NCBI GenBank assembly: GCA_035496255.1
Contig: DATJEU010000006.1
Span: 10,254-74,253, forward strand
Length of the DNA: 64,000 bases
DNA from: Vicinamibacterales bacterium
GTDB lineage: Bacteria; Acidobacteriota; Vicinamibacteria; Vicinamibacterales; UBA2999
Direction of reading: 5' to 3'
The position numbers and the translations under genes are program-made. The number at the start of each line of letters is the position of its first letter. The first letter of the stretch is position 1. Positions 31,482-43,284 of the stretch are shown here, one piece after another. The notes beneath the pieces are model-generated. The model saw nothing but the letters and a program-made list of their open reading frames with translations, ran no database searches and was not told where the DNA came from.

Positions 31482-31557
31482 GGGCCTGTGGCGCAGTTGG
31501 GAGCGCGCCTGAATGGCATTCAGGAGGTCACCGGTTCGAACCCGGTCAGGTCCACCA
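31482..31557 (+). tRNA. tRNA-Ala (anticodon GGC), CCA encoded
   Basis: Hand-folded 76-nt cloverleaf: acceptor GGGCCTG/CAGGTCC with the G3:U70 alanine identity pair, D-loop AGTTGGGA, anticodon loop ATGGCAT, T-loop TTCGAAC, discriminator A, CCA. Confidence 0.95.
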
Positions 31558-31763: not shown

Positions 31764-33797
31764 CTACTGCACCTCATAGACCGCGAGAATCGGCCGGTGG
31801 TCCGACGGCATCACGCCGTTCGCATCGCGGGTGTCGACGACTTCTACTCGAATCAGCTTCAGATTGCTGGCCTTCTTCGACGTCATCACGAAATCGATTC
31901 GGCTGTTGCGCGTATAGCCGTTCGGGTTGTCCGACGCCGAATACGCAAAGCCGCCCGACTTGGCCACGAGCCAGCCATCGGTATACGTGTTCTTCAGGTA
32001 GGTCAGCGTGCTCGACGTCGGCTGTGCATTGAGGTCGCCGACAACGATCCGGTTTTCCGCGAAACCGAGCTCCCAGGGCACCACCGCTTGAGCCTGATCG
32101 AGACGGTAGCTTTCCGAGTCGGGGTCGAAGTGCGTTGACGAGAACGTGACATTGCGGCCGTTGAAGCTGATCCCGCCGAGCGCCACCGTGCGGACGTGCG
32201 GCGTCAGATAGCGCGCGGTGAAGGTCCACGGGAAACGCGAGAGAATCAGGTTGCCCTTCCCGTTCGCCGTCCAGTTGCCGTATTCCTGAGCCCACACCAT
32301 GTACCAGGTCTGTCCGGTCTTCTCTTCCAGCAGCTTTTTGTAGACCGCAGGCTGGTCCTGGTTGCCCCAACCGGTGTACTTCTCGATCTCGTTGAACGAG
32401 ACCACGTCCGGTTTCAGCTTGGCCACCCAGGTCGCGAGCCGATTGGTGTCGTACTTGCCGTCGGTGCCGTAGCCGCCGTGATGCGTGTTCCAGTGGACCA
32501 CCCGCAATGTCTTCGTGGAGCCGCTCGACGAGGTGCTCGTCGACGTCGAGCCCGCCTTCACCGACACCTGGTCAAAGCTGACGGTGGCGAGAGACGGATC
32601 CGCGTGGCTGCTGACGGCCAGGCCGACGTACGCAGTCGATGCCATCGGGATCGAGGTGCTTCCGACCTTCGTCCACGTCACCCCGTCCGCCGAGCGGTAA
32701 CCCGTGAACGTCGACCCCGAACGAACGAGCTTGACCCACGAGGGCGCGCGTCCGCTGGACGATGTGTTCGCGGAGGCGCCGCTCGTAACCGTGCGGCGCT
32801 GCAGCGCGGTGCCCTTGCCCGGGCTGACCAGCATGAACGCGTGGCGCGAACCGGCGTTGAGCGTCTCGCGGAACATCACGCCCGCTTTCGTCCACTCATC
32901 AACCGCTTCTTCGCTCGCGACGCGCGCGATGATGGTGCCGTCGCCGGAAAGGCTTCGGTACACGAAGCGGAATTCGTCGGCGGCGCCCCAGACGTCCGCG
33001 CCCGCGCCGGTTACCGTGAACGCCGAACTGCTGCTGCTCGTGGCCGATCCGCCGGCGCCGACACTGCCGATGTCCTTCGAGGACCATCCGCTCGGCAGCG
33101 TCCCGGTGGAACCACTGGTCGATGCGGTGCCGCCGTAAATGACCGTCAGCGTCGGCCGCAACGAACTGGTGCTCGTCTCGGAGCTGTAGAACTGCCGGTA
33201 CGAATCGCGGCTCGACGCGCCATCGTCAACGATGCCGACGCGCGTGTAGCGTGAGTCGAATTTGCCGTTGACCGCGTCCTGGACGAGCGCCGTGACGTCG
33301 AACGAGACCTTGCTGCCGGCGGTGCCGGTCGCCCGTCCGGTGGCGTACTTGCCACTGAGCGACGCGCCTGTCGTGCTCCACGCCAGAGAGGACTTGCGGT
33401 TCTTCCAGTTCGCGGCGCGCTCGTCGAACGACTGCGCCACACGGTAGGCGGTCAGCGTGCGCGTCTCGCTGTTGCCGCCTTTCACGGTGAGCGTCAACAC
33501 GGCTGATTGAATGGCGGCCCCGGCGGGAACGTAGTCCTGGGTATCGAACTTCAGAAGCGCTCGCCGTTCGTACTGGTCGTCGCTGCTTGCACGGGTCTCG
33601 AGAATCGCGTCCGCGCCGAAATTGGTCGTGGCATAGGAGCCGCCGCGAATCGTGGTGTCCACGGTCAACTGCTGCCGTGTGTTGAGCACCACCGTCTTCT
33701 GAGCGAGCGCCGGAGAACTGGTGAGGAGGAAACCAAGGACGGTCGCCATCGTGATCGTGGCGGTACGGACGAAGTCATACCTGCATCGACGCATCAA
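31764..33797 (-). CDS. Secreted multidomain protein: DNRLRE-like N-domain, ConA/LamG-like jelly-roll, C-terminal endonuclease/exonuclease/phosphatase (EEP) domain
   Basis: Signal peptide ending ALA-QK. ERRALLKFD block; GADVWGAADEFRFVY...TKAGVMFRE jelly-roll block; EEP blocks LRVVHWNTHHG...SFNEIE and the terminal SDHRPILAVYEV. Confidence 0.7.
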   Translation of the reverse strand: MMRRCRYDFVRTATITMATVLGFLLTSSPALAQKTVVLNTRQQLTVDTTIRGGSYATTNFGADAILETRASSDDQYERRALLKFDTQDYVPAGAAIQSAVLTLTVKGGNSETRTLTAYRVAQSFDERAANWKNRKSSLAWSTTGASLSGKYATGRATGTAGSKVSFDVTALVQDAVNGKFDSRYTRVGIVDDGASSRDSYRQFYSSETSTSSLRPTLTVIYGGTASTSGSTGTLPSGWSSKDIGSVGAGGSATSSSSSAFTVTGAGADVWGAADEFRFVYRSLSGDGTIIARVASEEAVDEWTKAGVMFRETLNAGSRHAFMLVSPGKGTALQRRTVTSGASANTSSSGRAPSWVKLVRSGSTFTGYRSADGVTWTKVGSTSIPMASTAYVGLAVSSHADPSLATVSFDQVSVKAGSTSTSTSSSGSTKTLRVVHWNTHHGGYGTDGKYDTNRLATWVAKLKPDVVSFNEIEKYTGWGNQDQPAVYKKLLEEKTGQTWYMVWAQEYGNWTANGKGNLILSRFPWTFTARYLTPHVRTVALGGISFNGRNVTFSSTHFDPDSESYRLDQAQAVVPWELGFAENRIVVGDLNAQPTSSTLTYLKNTYTDGWLVAKSGGFAYSASDNPNGYTRNSRIDFVMTSKKASNLKLIRVEVVDTRDANGVMPSDHRPILAVYEVQ

Positions 33798-34169
33798 TCG
33801 AACCCCTGCGTGAGTTTGTTTGGGTATCGCCCGAAGGCGATGGAGTGATGACGGGGTGGTGATGCCCCGAATCGACGCCGCTCAGGGCAAGCGACTCGCC
33901 AGAAGCTGGAAGGCCGTTCGATTCAGTGAATTACATATGGAGGGGAGGAGCCGCAGTGCAGCAGTGACGGTGAAGACAACTGATCCGTTTGGACAGTCTT
34001 ACGCACCAGGTCCACCGACAGCCGAAATTGAATGAGAAGTTTACGATTCCGAGGACGTAGCCGGGAACGGCCGGGTTGGGAATCAGGACGAGCGCGGGTT
34101 GAGAGCTCGAAAGAGCCATCCTCTTCAGACCCGAAGCGCATCAGGAGGCGACGATTCCACGTCCCCTGG

Positions 34170-34577
34170 CTAGCTCGCCGCGGTACCACGCCTTGCGTGC
34201 ACGCGTTCGTAGCACGCGGCACACAGGCTCACGGTCGTGCGGCCTTCCTCGTCGGAATTCAGGAACTCTTCGATCGTCACCCAACGGCCATCGACCGCCA
34301 CCCGGCGGCACCACGCGCAGACCGTCAGCAGTTCACTGAGTGTCCGTTCGCGCGTTGACAGACGACGGTAGATACCGGCGGCGAGGCCGGTCACCAGCAG
34401 CGCTGCGGTGGCCTCGATCGCAAATTCGGAATGACGCGCGACCGATCGTTCGGCGCCGCCCAGCAGCCGTTCGGCCAGGCCGCCATATTCGTCGAGCGCG
34501 AAGACGACCAGCACCAGGATGGCGCCGCCAATCAGCACACGCCATGACGGCCGCCGCATTCGATCAGGCGGTCGCAT
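34170..34577 (-). CDS. Small 2-TM protein with C-terminal CxxC...CxxC module (paralogue B)
   Basis: 135 aa. Its ATG shares one base with the stop of paralogue A (TGATG). C-terminus LLTVCAWCRRVAVDGRWVTIEEFLNSDEEGRTTVSLCAACYER. Confidence 0.65.
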   Translation of the reverse strand: MRPPDRMRRPSWRVLIGGAILVLVVFALDEYGGLAERLLGGAERSVARHSEFAIEATAALLVTGLAAGIYRRLSTRERTLSELLTVCAWCRRVAVDGRWVTIEEFLNSDEEGRTTVSLCAACYERVHARRGTAAS

Positions 34578-35038
34578 CAGCTCGCTCGCGCGGAGACGGC
34601 GAGACCGCTGGTCTGCTCCTCGTAGCAGTCTCCGCAGATGCCGTGTGTCGTTGCCAGGTGATCGCGATTGGCCACCAGTTGTTCGAGCGAGATCCATTCG
34701 CCGCCGAATCCGATGCGCTGGCAGGACGCGCAGAGGATGAGCAGCGATTCGAGGTAAGCGACGCGGCGAAGCATGATGACCGACGTCGCCAGCACACCGG
34801 CGCCGAAGGCCAGCACCACCGCGCCCTCGAGCACCAGCTCCGACAGCCGCGGCACAGTGACCGGTTCGCCGAACAGGACGTGGGGAAGATCCAGGTACTC
34901 GTTCGCCCAGATCAGTCCCAGCAGTCCCAGGATGGCGACCGCCTCGAGCGCGACGACGCCGACGATGGAGCGAGACAACGGTTTCACAATCGCGTATCCA
35001 GAATGGTAGCCCGGCCACCAGCCATCTTCCGACGTCAA
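34577..35038 (-). CDS. Small 2-TM protein with C-terminal CxxC...CxxC module (paralogue A)
   Basis: 153 aa from TTG 35038 (alternative GTG 34987). IWANEYLDLPHVLFG loop. C-terminus LLILCASCQRIGFGGEWISLEQLVANRDHLATTHGICGDCYEE. Confidence 0.65.
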   Translation of the reverse strand: MTSEDGWWPGYHSGYAIVKPLSRSIVGVVALEAVAILGLLGLIWANEYLDLPHVLFGEPVTVPRLSELVLEGAVVLAFGAGVLATSVIMLRRVAYLESLLILCASCQRIGFGGEWISLEQLVANRDHLATTHGICGDCYEEQTSGLAVSARAS

Positions 35039-35081
35039 TCCTGTAGCGTTGTCGCGCGTGACCTGTGCTGTCCGCTCGATG

Positions 35082-35321
35082 CTATATCGTTGTCGGTATC
35101 GCCCCCGGCGCGGCGGCCGGCTGCGACCGACGGTGCGCCAGCGTCAGCCAGTCCGTGAGCTGGCGCGCGGCCTCGTCGGGTGTCTGCCCGTAGAAGGGCA
35201 TCATCGCAGTTGGCATCCCGGCCGTGCGTCGCAGTTGCGCACGCCACCGGTTGCCCACCGGCGTCACGTCAATCTGGTACGCACGTCCGCCAATCGTCTG
35301 TTCGAAGCGATGCACGTTCAC
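35082..35321 (-). CDS. Small soluble hypothetical protein (79 aa)
   Basis: High third-position GC in this frame. GTG start preceded by TTGATC-N16-TAAGAT (minus strand, 35368-35395). No recognisable domain. The track ORF extends to TTG 35432. Confidence 0.4.
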   Translation of the reverse strand: MNVHRFEQTIGGRAYQIDVTPVGNRWRAQLRRTAGMPTAMMPFYGQTPDEAARQLTDWLTLAHRRSQPAAAPGAIPTTI

Positions 35322-35574
35322 GAGTGTCGATGTCCGGAAAGAAAAGAGAGAGTTGCGAGCGCGGTTGATCTTACGCACTCGCTCGGCGCGATCAAGCGAA
35401 GCGGCGCACGAAGACTCGTGCACAGCGCGCAACTCGTTCGAGCGACGCCGGATCGGTTCACCGGAAAAATTTCATCAGCAGGATCTCCACAGGATTTGCA
35501 CGCTTCATCGACAGGTTTTCCACAGGTGCGCCCAAACCGGGTCCAGGGCGGCGCGTCCCGGTGCGGGCGGTAGA

Positions 35575-36966
35575 ATGAGCCGGCTCCTTTCCATGTCCAG
35601 CCGCGGCGTTGTTCTGCTCGTGCTGCTCGCCTGCGTTCCGCGGCTGGCCGTGGCTGCGCCCGCTGCGACGTTGTTCCGCATCTTCCTGACCGATGGCAGC
35701 GACGTCACCAGCTTCGGCGAATACGCGCGGGTTGGCGACGATGTGATCTTCTCCATGCCGGCGGGCGGCAGTGCCGACAATCCGCGCCTGCAACTGGTGA
35801 CGCTGCCGGCGAAGTCGGTCGACTGGACCCGCACGGAGCGCTACAGCGAATCGGCACGCGCAGACCACTACGCCAGCACTCGCGGTGAAGACGACTTCGC
35901 GCAGTTGAGCAACGAGGTGGCGCGCGTACTGAACGATCTCGCGATCTCGCCGGATCACGAGAAGGCCCTGGCGCTGGCGCAGCAGGCGCACGCGGTGCTC
36001 GTGAAGTGGCCGCTCGAGCACTATCACTATCGCGAAGCCGAGGTCCGCGACATCTTATCGATCGTCGACAACGCGATTGCCGGCCTGAGCGGCAAGCCCG
36101 CGAACGGGTTTCAGCTCGCCTTCGTCGCATCGGCGGCTGACCTCGTCCGCGAACCGATCGCCGGAATGCCCGGCGGCAGGGCGCAGATCGATCAGCTTCT
36201 GCGCGCGGCCGGTCTTACGCCCCGGGCCGCCGATCGCATGGAGCTCCTGCAGTCGGCCCTGCGTTTGGTGAAGGAAGCCGCGCCGACGCTTCCTTCCGCC
36301 GACGTCGACACCTTGCGAACGGAGATCGAACAGAAGATCCATCACGAAGTGGATGTCGATCAGAAATACGCGCGCATGTCGCAGCGGCTGATTGCCGACG
36401 GCCGGCGGGGTGCCCAATCGGCGCGCGCGAGCGTCGTGGAGCGTGTGCTGACGCGGCTCAATACCGAAGACGACCGTCTGGGTAAGGAACGTCCCGAGAC
36501 GGTGCGGGCGGTGCGCGCCGAACTCCAGGCGCAGCTCAACGACGCACGTCGTCTGAGATTGCTCCGCGATCAATGGATACTCCGCCAGCGGGCGTACCAG
36601 CAGTATCAGGAGAGTGTCGGCGTGGAACTGCTGCAGCTGGTCAAGTCGCGGCCGCAGCTCGAGGCCATCCGCACGCTCGAGGGACCGTCGCCGAATCGGC
36701 TCGTTACCCTGAAAGCCCGCTTGTCAGGCGGGGCCGAGCGTCTCCAGCGCCTGCGCGTGCCGCCGGAAATGCAGGCCGCTCATGACCTGCTCGTCGGCGC
36801 GTGGCGCTTTGCTGAAAATGCGGCGACCAGCCGTTACGACGCGGTAAGCAGCGGCAACGTGTCGACGGCGTGGAAAGCGTCCTCGGCGGCGGCCGGCGCC
36901 TTGATGCTGCTCGATCGCGCGCAGGCCGAAATCCGCACCGTCCTCGAGTTTCCCAGGCTGAAGTGA
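35575..36966 (+). CDS. Hypothetical secreted protein (464 aa)
   Basis: Signal-peptide-like N-terminus MSRLLSMSSRGVVLLVLLACVPRLAVA-AP. The rest is largely helical and Arg/Glu/Leu-rich. The stop overlaps the addB start (GTGA). Confidence 0.6.
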   Translation: MSRLLSMSSRGVVLLVLLACVPRLAVAAPAATLFRIFLTDGSDVTSFGEYARVGDDVIFSMPAGGSADNPRLQLVTLPAKSVDWTRTERYSESARADHYASTRGEDDFAQLSNEVARVLNDLAISPDHEKALALAQQAHAVLVKWPLEHYHYREAEVRDILSIVDNAIAGLSGKPANGFQLAFVASAADLVREPIAGMPGGRAQIDQLLRAAGLTPRAADRMELLQSALRLVKEAAPTLPSADVDTLRTEIEQKIHHEVDVDQKYARMSQRLIADGRRGAQSARASVVERVLTRLNTEDDRLGKERPETVRAVRAELQAQLNDARRLRLLRDQWILRQRAYQQYQESVGVELLQLVKSRPQLEAIRTLEGPSPNRLVTLKARLSGGAERLQRLRVPPEMQAAHDLLVGAWRFAENAATSRYDAVSSGNVSTAWKASSAAAGALMLLDRAQAEIRTVLEFPRLK

Positions 36967-39863
36967 TTACGCCGCGCCGCACGCGCCTGGTGCGCGTGAA
37001 CACGCTCCACTCGTTCCGCAACGCAGTGGTCAGGCTGGCATGTACCGGCATGCCGGCCGACGCACGCCATCGCCTGGTGGTCGTCCCGACACGAGCCGCG
37101 GCGGCTCACCTGGTGCGCGCCATCGAAACAACGCACCTGCACTCCGGCGGCGCGATGCTGCTGCCCGAGTTCGTCACTCGCGGTGAACTCATCGGCGTGC
37201 TGTCGCAGCGGCTGCGGCCGCACGACGCAGTGCTGAGCGACGCCGAACGCGAGGTGCTGCTCGGCGTTGCCGCGCGGACCGCGCAGGCCGACGGGAATGA
37301 GCCGCCGTTCGCGTTGCGGCCCGGACTCCTGGCCGAGATGCTGCGCTTCTACGATGAACTGCGCCGGCATCGCAACACGATCGACGAGTTCGAGCGGCGC
37401 GCCCTCGATCGCCTCGAGCCTGGCGCTGAATACGATCGCGGCGCGGCGCGGCTGGTTCGGCAAACGCGGTTTCTGGTGGCGACGTTTCACGATCTCGAGC
37501 GGCGGGTTCGCGAGGCCGGCGCCGACGAACACCTGTTGCGCGACCGGCTGCTCGCCGAGACCGCGGCGACGCCCTGGCGTCACGTGATCATTACCGTTGC
37601 CGATCGCGGCTTCGATCCCCATGGTCTCTATCCGGCCGACTGGGACCTGCTGGCGCGCATTCCGGGCCTCGCCTCCCTGGACATCGTCATCACCGACACG
37701 GTTCTCGCGGGAGCGCTGCACGAACGGATGCACACCGTGCTGCCGGGCCTCGAGGAGGTGCGTGATGAGGAAGCAGTGGACTCAACTCCGCAGTTGCTGG
37801 TTGCCGGGCAGTCGATCGTGCACGCCGCGCGCGATCGTGAGGAGGAGGTGGCCCTGTTCGCGCGTCGCGTCAAGCACGATGCACGGGTGCACGGTGCGGC
37901 GCCCGATCGCCGCGCGCTCGTCGTCCAGCAACCATTGCCGTACGTGTACGTGGCGCGTGACGTGCTTCGCGCCGCCGGCATTCCGTGCCAGATGTTCGAC
38001 GCCCTCCCGCTGGCGGCGGAGCCGTTCTCGGCGGCGCTGGATCTCGCGTTCTCCGCCGTCAGCAGTAACTTCGGACGCCAGCCGGTGGTTGCGCTGCTGC
38101 GCTCGCCGCATTTTCAATTCGCCGCAGACGGCGAACGGGGCGTCGCCGCCCGCGACCTCATCGCGCTCGATCGCGCGCTGGCGGAGGCCGGGTATCTCGG
38201 TGGTCTGGATTCGCTCGATCGGCTGATTGACGAGTGGAGCGCGAAGGAGGCCGAACGCGGCTTGTTCAAGCGCGCGCTGCGCGCGGCAATGATCATGCGC
38301 GGCGTGGTCGGTGAATTGACGCCGCTGCGCGACGCGGCGCCCGTCGCGGCCCACGCTGGCCTGCTCCTCGCGTTCCTCCGTGCTCACGAACAGGTGCCGG
38401 GTCCCGACGATCCACTGCGCGCGCGTCAATTGCGTGCGCGCGGCGCCGTCCTCGGCGCGCTGATGTCGATGCAACAGGCGTATGCGCGCTTCGACGACAT
38501 ACCGGTGGATTTCGATCACGTCGCCGCGCTGACGCGCCGGTGGATCGAAGCGCAGACCTTCCAGCCGCTCACCGGCGATGACGGCGTGCACGTGGTCGAC
38601 GCCGCCAGCGCGCGCTTTGGCGATTTCGATGAGGTGCAGCTTGCCGGTCTGGTTGACGATGAATGGCCGGAACGGCCGCGGCGAAACATCTTTTATTCGC
38701 CGGGGGTGCTGCGCGATCTTGGCTGGCCTGCCGACTCCTGTCGAATCGATGGCGCGCGCGCGGCGTTCATCGACCTGCTGAAGCTGCCGGCGCAACGCCT
38801 GGTGCTGTCGACGTTCAATCTCGAAGCGGACGCGATCGTCAGCCCCTCGTTGCTCGTGGAAGAAGTCGAGCGGGCGGGCTTGCCGATCGTAAACATCGAT
38901 CTGCCGTTTCAGCGAATATTCGACGACGAGCGGCTGGTGTTCGAGATCGGGCCCGCCATCACGCCGGCTGGCCCGAGCGGAGTCGAAGGAACGGCGCAGG
39001 CGCCCGCGCCCGGCTCCGGCGCGCTGCCCGCGTTGTCGCTGTCGGCGATCGAGCGGTATCAGGATTGTCCCTTCAAGTTCTTTGCGGCAGACGTGCTGCG
39101 CCTGGAAGAAGCGCCGGAAGACGAGTCGATGCTGTCGCCGCGCGCGCGCGGCCGTTTCATCCACGAGGTGTTTCAGCGCTTCTTCGAGGCGTGGGACAGG
39201 CGCGGAGGCGGGGCGATCACCAGCGTTCGCCTCGATGGTGCGCGCTTGCTGTTCCACGAAGTCGCCGAACCGTTGCTCGAACGGCTGCCGGAGGCCGATG
39301 CGGCGCTCGAGCGAACACGTCTGTTCGGCTCGGCGATCTCTGTTGGCGTCGTCGACGTCGTGCTCGGCCTCGAGGCCTCGGCACCGGTCGATGTCCGCGA
39401 GCGATGGCTGGAGCACCGGTTCGAGGGCGAGTTCGACGTCGGTGGATCGGATGGCCGTACGGTCGCGCTCAAAGGCGTGGCCGATCGCGTCGATCTCCTG
39501 GACGGGCGTCGCCTGAGGGTGGTCGATTACAAGTCAGGATCGGCGCCCAATCCGCGCCGGGCGCTGCAGGTACCCGTCTATGCGCTCGTCGCGCAGGAGC
39601 AACTCTCCGCGCGCGACGGGCAGCCGTGGCAGGTGGATGCCGCGTCGTACGTTGCATTGACGGGCAAGCGCAACCTCGTGTCGGTGGTGAAGGCCGGGTC
39701 GCCCGATGCCGAGGCGCCGTTACAGGACGCACGCGCGCGGCTGTTCGAGCTTCTCGACGGCATCGACGCCGGCCTGTTCCCACCGCGTCCTCACGACGAG
39801 ATGATCTGCCGTTACTGCGCGTACCCGTCGGTGTGCCGGAAGGACTATGTCGGCGACGAGTAA
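36963..39863 (+). CDS. addB: AddB-type helicase-nuclease subunit (PD-(D/E)XK nuclease with Cys cluster, no Walker A)
   Basis: C-terminal nuclease block GVADRVDLLDGRRLRVVDYKSG. Four Cys (YQDCPFKF and CRYCAYPSVC) consistent with the AddB Fe-S cluster. Directly precedes and overlaps addA. Confidence 0.8.
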   Translation: MITPRRTRLVRVNTLHSFRNAVVRLACTGMPADARHRLVVVPTRAAAAHLVRAIETTHLHSGGAMLLPEFVTRGELIGVLSQRLRPHDAVLSDAEREVLLGVAARTAQADGNEPPFALRPGLLAEMLRFYDELRRHRNTIDEFERRALDRLEPGAEYDRGAARLVRQTRFLVATFHDLERRVREAGADEHLLRDRLLAETAATPWRHVIITVADRGFDPHGLYPADWDLLARIPGLASLDIVITDTVLAGALHERMHTVLPGLEEVRDEEAVDSTPQLLVAGQSIVHAARDREEEVALFARRVKHDARVHGAAPDRRALVVQQPLPYVYVARDVLRAAGIPCQMFDALPLAAEPFSAALDLAFSAVSSNFGRQPVVALLRSPHFQFAADGERGVAARDLIALDRALAEAGYLGGLDSLDRLIDEWSAKEAERGLFKRALRAAMIMRGVVGELTPLRDAAPVAAHAGLLLAFLRAHEQVPGPDDPLRARQLRARGAVLGALMSMQQAYARFDDIPVDFDHVAALTRRWIEAQTFQPLTGDDGVHVVDAASARFGDFDEVQLAGLVDDEWPERPRRNIFYSPGVLRDLGWPADSCRIDGARAAFIDLLKLPAQRLVLSTFNLEADAIVSPSLLVEEVERAGLPIVNIDLPFQRIFDDERLVFEIGPAITPAGPSGVEGTAQAPAPGSGALPALSLSAIERYQDCPFKFFAADVLRLEEAPEDESMLSPRARGRFIHEVFQRFFEAWDRRGGGAITSVRLDGARLLFHEVAEPLLERLPEADAALERTRLFGSAISVGVVDVVLGLEASAPVDVRERWLEHRFEGEFDVGGSDGRTVALKGVADRVDLLDGRRLRVVDYKSGSAPNPRRALQVPVYALVAQEQLSARDGQPWQVDAASYVALTGKRNLVSVVKAGSPDAEAPLQDARARLFELLDGIDAGLFPPRPHDEMICRYCAYPSVCRKDYVGDE

Positions 39864-42800
39864 CTTCCGCCTGCCGTTCGACAACGTCGATCCGTCCCGA
39901 GTGGAGTCGAGGGACCTGCGCATCGATGCGCGCGATCGCGAGGGACGCGCACGCGCCGTCGATCCGCGGTTCAACGTTGCGCTCGAAGCGTCGGCAGGAA
40001 CGGGCAAGACGCGCGTCCTCGTCGATCGCTACGTCAACCTGCTGAAGGCCGGCGTCGATCCGGCGAACGTTCTCGCCATCACGTTTACGCGGAAGGCTGC
40101 CGCGGAGATGCGTGAGCGAATCCTGGCGAGCCTTGCCGATGCCGCGTCTCGCGGCGAGATTCCTCCGTCCCGCTGGCGCGAGTTGCGCGACCGCACCGGC
40201 GACATCGCCATCAGTACGATCGACGCGTTCTGCCTGTCGCTCCTGCGCGAATTTCCGCTCGAGGCCGATCTTGATCCCGGCTTTTCAATGGCGGACGACA
40301 CCGAGGTGCCGCGGCTGATCGACGAATCGCTGGATCGCGCCATCCGCATCTGCCGCGCCGTCGCGCGCGAGGACGAACACGTTGCCCTGGTCTTCGCACA
40401 GCTCGGCGACCGCCGGGCGCGCCGTGGCCTCGCGGTCCTGCTGAACCGCCGCATCGTCGCACCCGATGTGCTCGGGCGTTATCTCGCGAAGGGGCCGCGT
40501 GAGCTCACGGTGGAGAAGGCGACGCAGGATGGCGCGGCCGCGCTGCTCGGGGTGTTCGAGGCAATGCCCGGCGGCCTTGCGGCGTTCATCGAGTCGGGGC
40601 CACCGCAACCGGCGTTCCTGGTGCTCGTGCGGCATTTGCTGAGAGTGGGCGGGTCTGAAGGCCCGCCCCTGCACGGACCCGTCGATTCGCGTGGGTCGGG
40701 AAACCCGCCCCTGCCAGCATCAAACTCGAGCGCAGGCGCAGCGCTTCAGACCCGCCCGATCGATCCCGCGGCTCTGCAAGCGGTCTTCTTCCGGGCGCGC
40801 GAGCATTTCCTCACGCAGGACGGCACGCCCCGCAGCCGGTCGCCGTACAAAAAGGATCTGTTCGCGAGCGCGGCAGACTACGAGCGCCACCGCGACCTGA
40901 CGCTCGGGCACGGCCAGGCATTTCTCGAGGCATGGAACCGCTACCGTCGCGACCTCAACGTGCTGGTGTCGCGCGGTGTGCTGCGGATGTATCGCATCGC
41001 CGAGGCGGAGTACCGCCGTACGCTGGATGTGCACGCGGTGCTCGACTTCTCCGATGTCCTCCTGCGCGCCCTTGACCTGCTGCGGAAGATGGAGGAGTTC
41101 GCGCAGAGCCGCTACCGCCTCGAGTCGCGCTATCACCACGTGCTCGTCGACGAATTTCAGGACACGAGCCGTGCCCAGTGGGAACTGGTCTCGCTGCTCG
41201 TGAAGTCCTGGGGCGAGGGCGCCGGTCTCGCACACACGGGCCCGCTCCAGCCGTCGATCTTCATCGTCGGCGATCGCAAGCAGTCGATCTACAGCTTCCG
41301 CGATGCCGACGTGTCGGTGTTGCAGGAAGCCGCTCGTCACCTTGACGCGTTGCGGCCCGACGGCGACGTGCGGCGTGCGATCTCCCGTAGCTTCCGCTCG
41401 GTGCCGGGCCTGCTCACGTTCGTGAACGACGTGTGCCAGGAGATCGAGAAGTCGCCGGGTCGGACCGACGCGTTTCGCTACGACGAGCAGGATCGATTTC
41501 CGCTCGATGGCGCGGAGGTTGAGGCCACCGCGGTCCTGGGTGCGGCGATGGCCGAGACACCGGAAGCGTGCGCGGGGGCCGCGGCCGTCGAGATCGCGCG
41601 CCTGGTCGCTTCAGGTACGACCGTGCGCGATCGCGACAGTGGCGTGCCACGGCCCATTCGCCCCGGCGATATCGCCATCCTCTTTCGCACGCGCGACAGT
41701 CATCGCGAATTCGAAGCGGCGCTCGAGACGCACGGAATCCCGGCGTACGTCTACAAGGGCCTTGGTTTTTTCGATGCTGATGAAATCAAGGATGTCGTCG
41801 CGCTGCTGTGGTATCTCGCGGAACCCGACTCGGAACTGCGGGCGGCTGCGTTCCTGCGCTCGCGCTTCGTGCAGCTCTCCGACGCGGCGCTGCGTGGATC
41901 GGCGTCGCGCCTGGCAGCGGAGGCGCGCCGGCACGGCGGCGCGTGGCTGCCACTGGTCGATCGCCTGCCGCCGGCGGAACTGCTCGATCGCGTCCTGCGC
42001 GAGTCCGAGTACGCCACGCGGCTGCGCGGCCCGCGCTATCAGCAGGCGCGTGAGAACCTGAAGAAGATTCGCGCGCTGATTCGACGCATTCAGAACCGCG
42101 GTTATGTGACGCTCGGTCGAATCGTCGGCCACCTCGATCGCCTGGCCGTCGGCGACGAAGCCAATGCCGTGATCGATGCGCTCGACGCGGTCAACTTGAT
42201 GACCGTCCACGCCGCAAAGGGCCTCGAGTTCCCGGTGGTGTTCGTCGTCAACCTGACGCGCGGCACCGGTAACTGGCGGCACCCGATCCGCGTCACGGCC
42301 GATGCTGCCGGCGAGTCGCCGTCGGTCTCGGTCGGCGATTTCCAGTCCGAAGCGGATGAAGACGATCGCGCTCGCGAACGCGAGGAGACGAAGCGGCTGT
42401 TGTACGTCGCGCTCACGCGTGCCCGTGATCGCTTGTATCTCGGCACGGTGGTGAAGGATGGCCGCCTGCAGCCGGGACGGGGCAGCCTCGCCGAGGTGCT
42501 CCCCGCATCGCTGCTCGCGGCGATGACCGACGCCGCGACCAGCGGTGACGCCGTCCGCTGGCAATCGCACGTCATGCCGCTGGCCTCGGTCGCCGGAGCC
42601 GGTCTTTCTGCGCAGAAGGCTCCCGCGGACCGCAGCAGGCTCGGCGAAGGCGGTCAGACCCGCCCCGACGCGCCGGAGTCTCCGCAGGCGTTCGTTGCCG
42701 GCCGCGATCCCTCGGATGACGTCAGGTCGCAGGATACTGACTATGAGCCAATCGAGGACCACGGCATCGCTCGCATCTCAGTCGCCGACGCGATTGCCGA

Positions 42801-43284
42801 TCAGCAACGTACGACCGCGCGATTCACAGAAGGACGTGAGTCGTCACGCCTTGTCGGAACGCTCGTTCATCGACTGGTCCGGCGCTGCGGACTCGATCCG
42901 GCTGCCGACACCGACGCTGTCCTGCCGCGGCTGCTGGCCGCGCACGAATCAGTTGACCTCGACGACCTGAAGCGCGTGTGTGACGATGCGAGAGCGGCGT
43001 ACGCCGCGCTTTGTGCAATGCCGCAGGTACGCGCGGCTTACGAAATGGGTCAGCCGCTGCACGAAGTGCCGTTCACACTTGCACAGGACGGCAGAATTAT
43101 TCGCGGCACAATTGACTGTCTCGTCGTCGGCGAGGCGGCGGCGACCGTGCTCGAATTCAAGACCGGCCGTCCTCGGCCCGAGCACCAACGCCAGTTGGCC
43201 CTGTACGAGACAGCCGTGCGGGCGATTTACCCGTCCATTCGAGTGGAAGCGCGGTTGATTTATCTCGAAGCGGCGATCGATTGA
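39847..43284 (+). CDS. addA: AddA/UvrD-family ATP-dependent helicase-nuclease
   Basis: Walker A ASAGTGKTR, DEFQDT (motif II), VHAAKGLEFPVV, YVALTRAR. C-terminal RecB-type nuclease block GTIDCLVV...LEFKTG. Confidence 0.9.
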   Translation: MSATSNFRLPFDNVDPSRVESRDLRIDARDREGRARAVDPRFNVALEASAGTGKTRVLVDRYVNLLKAGVDPANVLAITFTRKAAAEMRERILASLADAASRGEIPPSRWRELRDRTGDIAISTIDAFCLSLLREFPLEADLDPGFSMADDTEVPRLIDESLDRAIRICRAVAREDEHVALVFAQLGDRRARRGLAVLLNRRIVAPDVLGRYLAKGPRELTVEKATQDGAAALLGVFEAMPGGLAAFIESGPPQPAFLVLVRHLLRVGGSEGPPLHGPVDSRGSGNPPLPASNSSAGAALQTRPIDPAALQAVFFRAREHFLTQDGTPRSRSPYKKDLFASAADYERHRDLTLGHGQAFLEAWNRYRRDLNVLVSRGVLRMYRIAEAEYRRTLDVHAVLDFSDVLLRALDLLRKMEEFAQSRYRLESRYHHVLVDEFQDTSRAQWELVSLLVKSWGEGAGLAHTGPLQPSIFIVGDRKQSIYSFRDADVSVLQEAARHLDALRPDGDVRRAISRSFRSVPGLLTFVNDVCQEIEKSPGRTDAFRYDEQDRFPLDGAEVEATAVLGAAMAETPEACAGAAAVEIARLVASGTTVRDRDSGVPRPIRPGDIAILFRTRDSHREFEAALETHGIPAYVYKGLGFFDADEIKDVVALLWYLAEPDSELRAAAFLRSRFVQLSDAALRGSASRLAAEARRHGGAWLPLVDRLPPAELLDRVLRESEYATRLRGPRYQQARENLKKIRALIRRIQNRGYVTLGRIVGHLDRLAVGDEANAVIDALDAVNLMTVHAAKGLEFPVVFVVNLTRGTGNWRHPIRVTADAAGESPSVSVGDFQSEADEDDRAREREETKRLLYVALTRARDRLYLGTVVKDGRLQPGRGSLAEVLPASLLAAMTDAATSGDAVRWQSHVMPLASVAGAGLSAQKAPADRSRLGEGGQTRPDAPESPQAFVAGRDPSDDVRSQDTDYEPIEDHGIARISVADAIADQQRTTARFTEGRESSRLVGTLVHRLVRRCGLDPAADTDAVLPRLLAAHESVDLDDLKRVCDDARAAYAALCAMPQVRAAYEMGQPLHEVPFTLAQDGRIIRGTIDCLVVGEAAATVLEFKTGRPRPEHQRQLALYETAVRAIYPSIRVEARLIYLEAAID

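Follow-up and report, generated by a model that had tools for sequence, protein, structure and literature searches.

A translationally coupled pair of two-helix membrane proteins sharing a four-cysteine tail as a candidate minimal signal transducer in Vicinamibacterales

In a 64,000-nucleotide (nt) stretch of a Vicinamibacterales genome (contig DATJEU010000006.1, positions 10,254 to 74,253 of the forward strand; hereafter the window), two overlapping minus-strand genes, A and B, encode small paralogous proteins, each made of a hairpin of two transmembrane (TM) segments followed by a tail with four cysteines (Cys4). We put the chance at somewhat better than even (about 0.55) that A and B are two subunits of one small membrane-embedded signal transducer, with the hairpin as its input and the cysteine-knuckle tail as its output. 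The novelty would lie in a transmembrane signal transducer whose two modules are both undescribed and whose form, minimal and heterodimeric, is unusual. Many proteins with PAS, receiver (REC) or HAMP domains are annotated as sensors or response regulators without a recognisable output. A large share of these output-less sensor proteins end in one conserved four-cysteine module that has neither a Pfam or NCBIfam model nor a match to a solved structure. The Vicinamibacterales pair is among the smallest complete proteins with this module, which is joined here to a hairpin also used as a histidine kinase input.

Gene A (34577..34987, minus strand) encodes the canonical subunit of 136 amino acids (aa), with the hairpin and the Cys4 tail, and was delimited from the list of open reading frames (ORFs), the sequence and an alignment of homologues. 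A first-pass annotation of the window had placed this ORF at 34577-35038; the ORF is there, but not its start, since all 31 homologues of A are about 136 aa long and align from the GTG at 34987. Therefore, A has 136 and not 153 residues, and the TTG start at 35038 extends it 17 codons too far. One of the retrieved proteins, P0001, is 100% identical to A. Gene B (34170..34577, minus strand, ATG start at 34577) encodes a degenerate paralogous subunit of 135 aa, as judged from its sequence, BLASTP against A and hydropathy, and is identical to HTM02028.1, annotated as a hypothetical protein in a Vicinamibacterales metagenome-assembled genome (MAG). The common layout that had been described for the two ORFs was borne out: both lie on the minus strand, they are paralogous (BLASTP E 3e-12, 30% identity over 100 residues) and each has two hydrophobic segments by hydropathy. 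The TGATG overlap, in which the stop codon of A and the ATG of B have one base in common, was likewise found in the sequence. The motif string reported for both tails reads letter for letter in the two copies, with the spacing C-x2-C-x28-C-x2-C identical and free of indels (cysteines at 86/89/118/121 in A and 87/90/119/122 in B).

Both proteins show the family trait of two TM segments, a predicted N-in orientation and a length of about 125-145 aa, and all of their parts are given here on the minus strand. In A, TM1 (34904..34969, residues 7-28) carries the conserved E15, G18-F19 and W27 and was placed by hydropathy, by a helix at 4-31 with a predicted local distance difference test score (pLDDT) above 90 in an AlphaFold2 (AF2) model, and by conservation in 140 sequences. 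It is followed by an outer-face loop (34838..34903, residues 29-50: N-E30-Y-L-D33-L-P35-H36 ... G40 ... E50), a putative ligand site by its conservation, and by TM2 (34769..34837, residues 51-73) with the conserved E54, the helix of which runs on to residue 81. The Cys4 tail domain of A (34613..34762, residues 76-125: L79-E80, C86xxC89, W98, E102, H115-G116, C118xxC121) matches the hidden Markov model (HMM) of the tail with an E-value of 1.2e-19. In B, W27 is replaced in TM1 (34491..34544, residues 12-29), and the loop and TM2 (34368..34490, residues 30-70) keep the DEY and SE motifs, have a degenerate D33-L-P-H (GGLAE) and hold one extra residue. The Cys4 tail of B (34200..34349, residues 77-126: C87xxC90 ... 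C119xxC122) has Val for the His before the second knuckle and matches the tail HMM at 7e-19. Thus, the outer-face motif W27-x-[ND]-E30-x-x-D33-[LI]-P35 ... E50 ... E54 is complete in A, and B has kept E30, E50 and E54 and lost W27, D33, P35 and H36. The tail motif, C-x2-C-x27-29-C-x2-C with W98 and H115-G116, is also complete in A, and B has the four Cys and W98, with V at H115.

The close homologues were retrieved by a word-indexed search (n=31, all unannotated); in this set the four Cys, W98 and the His-Gly that precedes the second knuckle never vary. A divergent set came from an exhaustive HMMER search with an A+B profile. With E<=1e-3 as the cutoff it matched 19,711 representative clusters, of which 690 reach E<=1e-10, and nearly all of the 150 top matches are 125-180 aa long and matched over their full length. 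In a 140-sequence alignment of this set, with a mean column identity of 22%, the conserved positions lie in TM1 (E15, G18-F19, W27), in the loop (E30, D33-L-P35, G40), where TM2 begins (E50, E54), in the helix that joins TM2 to the tail (R75, L79-E80) and in the tail itself (C86, C89, W98, E102, H115-G116, C118, C121). Within the N-terminal module, conservation peaks in the loop (E30 in 133, D33 in 105, P35 in 117 and E50 in 131 of the 140), and W27 and H115 are 88% conserved across the family. Conservation of the four Cys in homologues had been proposed as a check on the module, and they were found to be invariant in 30 close homologues and kept in 139-140 of the 140 divergent ones. A and B belong to no Pfam, NCBIfam or PADLOC family, and the 140 relatives have no consistent Pfam match. 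The closest genomic relatives are MAGs of Vicinamibacterales and Acidobacteria gp6. Other routes to homologues gave little: a tail-only word-indexed search with the A and B tails found 6 fragments only, a single-protein scan of genome contigs and tblastn against plasmids gave no match, and an alignment-based scan of genome contigs gave 4 loci.

For the hairpin, a role as a signalling input module is supported by its sharing with the N-terminus of a histidine kinase. The first 75 residues of a 330-aa histidine kinase from Thermodesulfobacteriota (L004:1756-2748, plus strand) are the same hairpin with the same motif (IWLNEYLDLPHVLF ... SEALFE), matched by the hairpin HMM built from the 140 sequences at 1.4e-25, and HisKA (80-145) and HATPase_c (193-303) follow directly. 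No obvious response-regulator gene lies alongside this kinase gene, and its neighbours resemble, by eye, a KamA-type radical-SAM enzyme and a cold-shock protein. The N-terminus of the module is basic, its loop is acidic and an RR follows TM2; because of this positive-inside charge distribution, the loop is predicted to lie outside and the tail in the cytoplasm. Conservation in the module is highest in the outward-facing loop and helix ends, where Glu, Asp and His are frequent; this points to a cation or proton site at the outer face. Acidic membrane-proximal patches are present in other sensors, and the site is proposed partly by this analogy; it is the weakest step of the argument. The hairpin has no model in Pfam-A (2025 copy) or NCBIfam r20 and no match in the Protein Data Bank (PDB).

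Distant members of the family carry the tail in the form 'LLPICASCKKIRDDKGYWNQIESYI..HSEAEFSHGICPDC', here called the classic tail, whose profile retrieved 3,390 short proteins or fragments. These include many tail-only proteins of 60-95 aa and fragments named 'response regulator, partial' and 'sensor with HAMP domain protein, partial' by NCBI. When metagenomes were scanned for the tail, at least 600 stretches were found, of which 585 were confirmed, and the 80 best reconstructed ORFs were taken as a sample of architectures. The tail is C-terminal in all 80, its last Cys being followed by a median of 15.5 residues, and at least one TM segment was counted, by crude hydropathy, in 46. The Pfam domains upstream of it are PAS (29), Response_reg (12), HAMP (9), MASE6 (4), dCache_1 (3) and HisKA_7TM (2), together with MASE3, PocR, 5TMR-LYT, CHASE3, 4HB_MCP, Tll0287-like, VUPS and Y_Y_Y, and among 25 of the 26 Pfam families matched in these ORFs there is no kinase core, GGDEF/EAL, helix-turn-helix (HTH) or MCP signalling domain, nor any other output domain of a catalytic or DNA-binding kind. 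Examples are a 217-aa protein with REC at 15-124 and the tail (L034), a 205-aa protein with REC and the tail (L070, where a gene for a 1,516-aa PAS-rich protein lies 32 nt upstream) and an 820-aa protein with several PAS domains and the tail (L021). Several of the 80 are small membrane proteins with other TM modules; the A/B-type hairpin itself occurs at none of the 80 classic-tail loci. Downstream of a 537-aa multi-PAS gene in a genome of 4.6 Mb, at a distance of 13 nt, lies an 85-aa ORF of a coiled coil plus tail (P0267, L008:5001-5258, plus strand), which represents either one part of a split gene or a tail protein that stands alone.

REC and HAMP domains always precede output domains in the established domain grammar, and the tail therefore occupies the output position. 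The first-pass annotation had noted a very similar Cys4 tail at the end of PAS- and receiver-type proteins, for which it knew of no assigned function, and both statements agree with these architectures and with the lack of any tail function or model in Pfam, NCBIfam (Pfam-A in its 2025 copy and NCBIfam r20, as for the hairpin) and the PDB. Its proposal that the Cys4 module is a metal or redox sensor was not upheld, as the tail stands in the output position after REC, HAMP and PAS and the hairpin is the part shared with a histidine kinase input. The classic tail is 71-93% identical to one consensus behind unrelated input domains. This uniformity suggests a common partner, since lineage-specific partners would not predict it. 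Tails of the hairpin family have a mean net charge of -0.4 and classic tails one of -0.7, which argues against generic nucleic-acid binding. Neither the tail nor the hairpin is described in the open-access full texts searched. Of the published domains found there, HalOD2 comes nearest: in this REC-linked output of archaea, 20-25 residues separate the two CXXC motifs (PMC5847659), so that it differs from the Cys4 tail in spacing and lineage.

An AF2 model from 30 close sequences was poor in the tail (pLDDT 50-60) and was discarded; with the 140-sequence alignment the mean pLDDT was 92.8. In the latter model of A, helix 4-31 is followed by a short helix (34-39) and by helix 48-81; from the length of this last helix, TM2 is predicted to continue into the cytoplasm. 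The tail has a first knuckle (86-89), two strands (92-94 and 97-99), a helix (101-109) and a second knuckle (118-121) at the N-terminus of helix 119-135, an arrangement that appears treble-clef-like when its topology is read from the model. Whether the module maps to an already characterised domain had been named as a check, and it has no significant match: for the AF2 model, the lowest Foldseek E-values were 3 in the PDB and 0.9 in BFVD, and sequence-profile searches of the PDB gave nothing significant, whether they started from the full family, from the classic tail or from a broad profile of the tail. The top PDB profile match in two independent runs was a member of the Fur family (9ire, E 0.67, and PerR 4i7h, E 0.2), with both knuckles covered and the statistics not significant, and no Fur match was found by Foldseek. 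When the tail profile was aligned by hhalign with a Fur-like ORF of locus L032, the two were colinear over 41 columns (pairwise E 1e-3, probability 20%). A link to the structural Zn(Cys)4 dimerisation element of Fur may be taken as a lead, not as a result. The aligned ORF, a Fur-family gene (L032:4751-5206, plus strand), lies about 200 nt downstream of a tail-bearing gene, which is probably a coincidence.

The pairing of the two genes extends beyond this genome. A pair or its fused version is present in 9 of 13 related loci, with a B orthologue after A in L001-L003, L006, L007 and L090, and the synteny that had been named as a check on the pair was found, a B-type gene following an A-type gene directly in most related loci. 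The genes overlap by 1 nt in the window and in L005, and they also overlap in L001, L002, L003, L007 and L090/L091 (by 4 nt where genes are called). At L006, no overlap is confirmed: 69 nt separate the two genes as called, although a longer ORF that does overlap exists. On the contig of the A-type protein P0003, the next gene encodes 136 aa and overlaps by 4 nt, but its sequence was not readable. In a member of Acanthopleuribacteraceae, one 281-aa chain (P0039, L089:3595-4440, plus strand) consists of two complete hairpin-plus-tail units, which are 42% identical to each other; the second unit has lost the His that precedes its second knuckle. The start of this gene is overlapped by a 62-aa ORF that resembles an N-terminal fragment of a serine recombinase. 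Another fused tandem from a metagenome (P0178, 295 aa) has two units, each with a different two-TM module and a classic tail, which demonstrates that two-tail units are also built on other membrane modules. A further metagenomic protein of 220 aa (P0053) has an A-type N-terminus in frame with a B-type tail (…RRLAYLESLL|GVLREAIHRIQHLSRMMTMCAWC…), and reflects either a deletion that occurred naturally between A and B or a chimeric assembly.

A orthologues are 38-81% and B orthologues 32-84% identical among themselves, and A and B are 24-37% identical to each other; the duplication is therefore old. H115 is lost (to V, Y or S) in every second copy, including the second half of P0039. W27 and H36 are lost in the separately encoded B copies, and the second half of P0039 keeps W27. 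Four singletons (P0113, P0063, P0042 and P0055) have kept both W27 and H115. The old duplication, the loss of H115, W27 and H36 in second copies and the retention of W27 and H115 in singletons are the reasons why we infer that pairing and one-sided loss are the signature of a pseudo-symmetric heterodimer, probably with one canonical and one dependent subunit. The heterodimeric signalling device suggested earlier for this locus thus gains support, by inference, from the strict tandem coupling in 8 loci, the fused two-unit protein and the one-sided degeneration of B. Because singletons exist, heterodimerisation is not obligatory for the family.

Under our preferred reading of A and B as one transducer, each subunit would be an N-in two-helix hairpin with E30, D33, H36, E50 and E54 at the outer face as the input site, and the input would most likely be a cation (a metal ion or a proton) or another envelope cue. 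TM2 would run as a continuous helix (R75...L79-E80) into the knuckle domain of about 45 residues (C-x2-C-x28-C-x2-C), which most likely holds one structural metal ion (Zn). A would be the canonical subunit and B an old, degenerate paralogue without W27, H36 and H115, both made in a 1:1 ratio by translational coupling, and the two could assemble into a four-helix membrane bundle with paired tails. Binding of the ligand by the carboxylate/His cluster, complete in A and degenerate in B, could then shift TM2 and, through the rigid helix, alter the packing of the tails. The tail, which thousands of PAS-, REC-, HAMP-, Cache- and MASE-type proteins have as their sole C-terminal module, would be the transmitter or output, and a cytoplasmic partner would read its change by protein-protein contact and not by catalysis or DNA binding.

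Several points weigh against this reading. With four singletons in the family, A and B could each homodimerise. Only one histidine kinase fusion of the hairpin was recovered, by the alignment-based genome scan. No downstream partner was found either: clustering of the neighbours of the 80 classic-tail loci gave only other PAS/kinase-type signalling genes (22/80) and no common effector, and the gene neighbourhood of the pair itself varies between loci. In addition, the cysteine pattern is the single clue to metal binding by the tail, and the conserved Glu, Asp and His are the single clue to the proposed cation sensing.

Among the other explanations, the Cys4 module could itself be the sensor, either as a thiol/Zn redox switch or as a rubredoxin-like Fe(Cys)4 centre that responds to oxidants or to the supply of metal, with the hairpin as a mere anchor. 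Zn(Cys)4 redox switches such as RsrA and Hsp33 are known, the four Cys are invariant and accompanied by a conserved His, and the spacing of 28-29 with a 'CPxC' second knuckle resembles the general pattern of rubredoxin-type knuckles. However, the tail always stands in the place of an output, after REC and HAMP, it has no Pfam rubredoxin or redox-domain match, and the hairpin is more than an anchor, having a highly conserved loop and serving as the N-terminal module of a histidine kinase; we therefore regard a sensing tail as unlikely. It is similarly unlikely that the tail serves as no more than a structural clamp for dimerisation, of the Fur-like Zn(Cys)4 kind, and that A and B are intramembrane modulators or adaptors of another membrane protein, like small-protein kinase regulators, without a cytoplasmic signal. 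Only one weak similarity of the tail recurs, and it is to the Zn(Cys)4 region by which Fur/PerR dimerise at their C-terminus (PDB profile E 0.2-0.67; hhalign 20%), and the fused tandems show that two tails belong together. Against a clamp stand the lack of significance and of a Foldseek Fur match, as well as the near-complete conservation of the classic tail across unrelated inputs, which suggests a surface selected for a common partner; PAS-tail and REC-tail proteins would also be left without any output.

A and B could also be independent homodimeric sensors of two cues that are merely co-transcribed after a tandem duplication, as their divergence is old and the singletons presumably homodimerise. 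We regard this as very unlikely, considering that the overlapping stop and start codons are kept in most pair loci, that an independent fusion puts two units in one chain, and that B is without W27 and H115, residues 88% conserved family-wide, as expected of a dependent partner. Small Cys4 zinc ribbons often bind nucleic acids, and the basic residues after the first knuckle (C-x-x-C-[KRQ]-[KR]) would suit membrane-tethered, ToxR/CadC-like regulators in which the knuckle binds DNA or RNA. Nonetheless, this role is very improbable for A and B: the tails are on average neutral or acidic (that of A has 2 basic and 6 acidic residues), the knuckle is only about 12 residues from the membrane in the AF2 model, and no HTH or known DNA-binding model is matched.

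Compared with known systems, the signal transducer proposed for A and B has an input layout like that of intramembrane-sensing histidine kinases of the LiaS/BceS type, which have two TM segments, a very short outer loop and a TM2 leading straight into a signalling helix, and the hairpin of the kinase at L004 is homologous and shares with that of A the motif W-x-N-E-Y-L-D-L-P-H ... E ... E. It differs from them in that A and B have the Cys4 tail in place of the DHp and catalytic domains, and in that conservation within the module is strongest in the outer loop, pointing to direct ligand binding. Fur, PerR and Zur resemble the tail in the two CxxC knuckles of their C-terminal domain, with the local context h-x-C-x-x-C-x-x-[IV] ... 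[HY]-G-h-C-x-x-C and a colinear alignment, and in a presumed role as a metal-locked dimer element. In contrast, A and B have no winged-helix domain and no Foldseek match to Fur, the statistics stay below significance, and the tail spacing of 28-29 is shorter than in the aligned Fur-like ORF, the alignment needing a 9-residue insertion. The classic tail of PAS, REC and HAMP proteins is homologous to the tail of A and B, having been retrieved by the family profile that includes the A tail, and shares with the family the invariant C, C, W, C, C, the conserved E and H-G and a preceding L-E-G-L-L helix; its spacing of 29, its far greater uniformity and its place after soluble or large membrane inputs instead of the hairpin set it apart. 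Pseudo-symmetric heterodimers from tandem duplication, known as a principle from transporters and enzymes, have a canonical and a degenerate copy, translational coupling and an occasional single-chain fusion as here, and none is described for so small a sensor, as far as searched.

More specific identities were considered and rejected. A and B are not sensor histidine kinases, because no HisKA/DHp or HATPase_c domain was found in either with Pfam or NCBIfam. Zinc-binding anti-sigma (ZAS) factors have an N-terminal H-x3-C-x2-C and usually lie beside a gene for an extracytoplasmic function (ECF) sigma factor, whereas the motif here is H-x2-C-x2-C, is C-terminal after the TM helices, and no sigma-factor match is among the neighbouring genes. 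Rubredoxin has no Pfam match in A, B or the 140 relatives and no PDB or Foldseek match. The C4 zinc finger of DksA/TraR (C-x2-C-x17-C-x2-C after a coiled coil) differs from the spacing of 28 found here, zf-dskA_traR has no Pfam match, and a Foldseek match to DksA2 (E 4.6, root-mean-square deviation 19 A) is noise. An anti-phage defence component is not indicated, with no PADLOC match for A or B and housekeeping neighbours, and a holin or toxin was rejected because the context is conserved and housekeeping, without phage genes.

A wider possibility, which we hold only tentatively, is that the Cys4 tail constitutes a major unnamed class of non-enzymatic, non-DNA-binding outputs for one common cytoplasmic hub, of which A and B would be the minimal, pseudo-symmetric heterodimeric, cation-sensing receptor form. 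If this is true, the two-gene, 271-residue unit would be the simplest handle on the hub and its signalling mechanism. The pair is a compact system for the metal, the dimer geometry, the ligand and the downstream partner, and the two alignments and HMMs provide a basis for defining new domain families for annotation.

Upstream of A lies a 79-aa ORF with a GTG start (35082..35321, minus strand) that adjoins the pair and that had been described as leading it. The ORF exists and has a coding-like third-position GC content (GC3, 0.80), but the 43-nt gap given for it is wrong, its stop lying 94 nt from the start of A because A starts at the GTG at 34987, and it is not part of the conserved unit. It belongs to a 12-member cluster at 90% identity, including HTM02030.1, and has no Pfam, NCBIfam or PADLOC match. 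As to its suggested co-occurrence with the pair across genomes, tblastn placed it beside the pair only at L005, from an identical strain, and it was not found beside the pair in six other pair loci (L001-L003, L006 and L007 by tblastn, and the P0003 contig). It is probably a real gene, but a lineage-specific one outside the conserved unit. In its place upstream of the pair, three related MAGs have a divergent tRNA-Thr(CGT) on the minus strand just upstream of A and B (L001:4172-4247, L002:694-769 and L003:92-167), and L006, L007 and the P0003 contig have a PfkB kinase gene. The promoter-like pair TTGATC-N16-TAAGAT noted earlier is present, yet it agrees with only 8 of 12 consensus positions and falls below the scan threshold; the scan of 33700-35700 gave 0 promoter sites, against 0.3 expected by chance, and no terminator after B.

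The surroundings in the window are of a housekeeping kind, with a tRNA and an AddB/AddA-like nuclease-helicase pair, plus a protein that looks secreted. The tRNA is at 31482-31554 (plus strand). The secreted-looking protein, of 677 aa, is encoded on the same strand as B and 373 nt downstream of it (31764-33797, minus strand), and combines CBM96, DUF1349 and an endonuclease/exonuclease/phosphatase (EEP) domain. Divergently oriented from the pair, a 463-aa protein (35575-36966, plus strand) has a signal-peptide-like N-terminus and no Pfam match, and is called as a gene in L005 too. It is followed by two overlapping plus-strand genes of the AddB/AddA type, for a 997-aa PD-(D/E)XK nuclease (36870-39863) and a 1145-aa UvrD-helicase-plus-PD-(D/E)XK protein (39847-43284).

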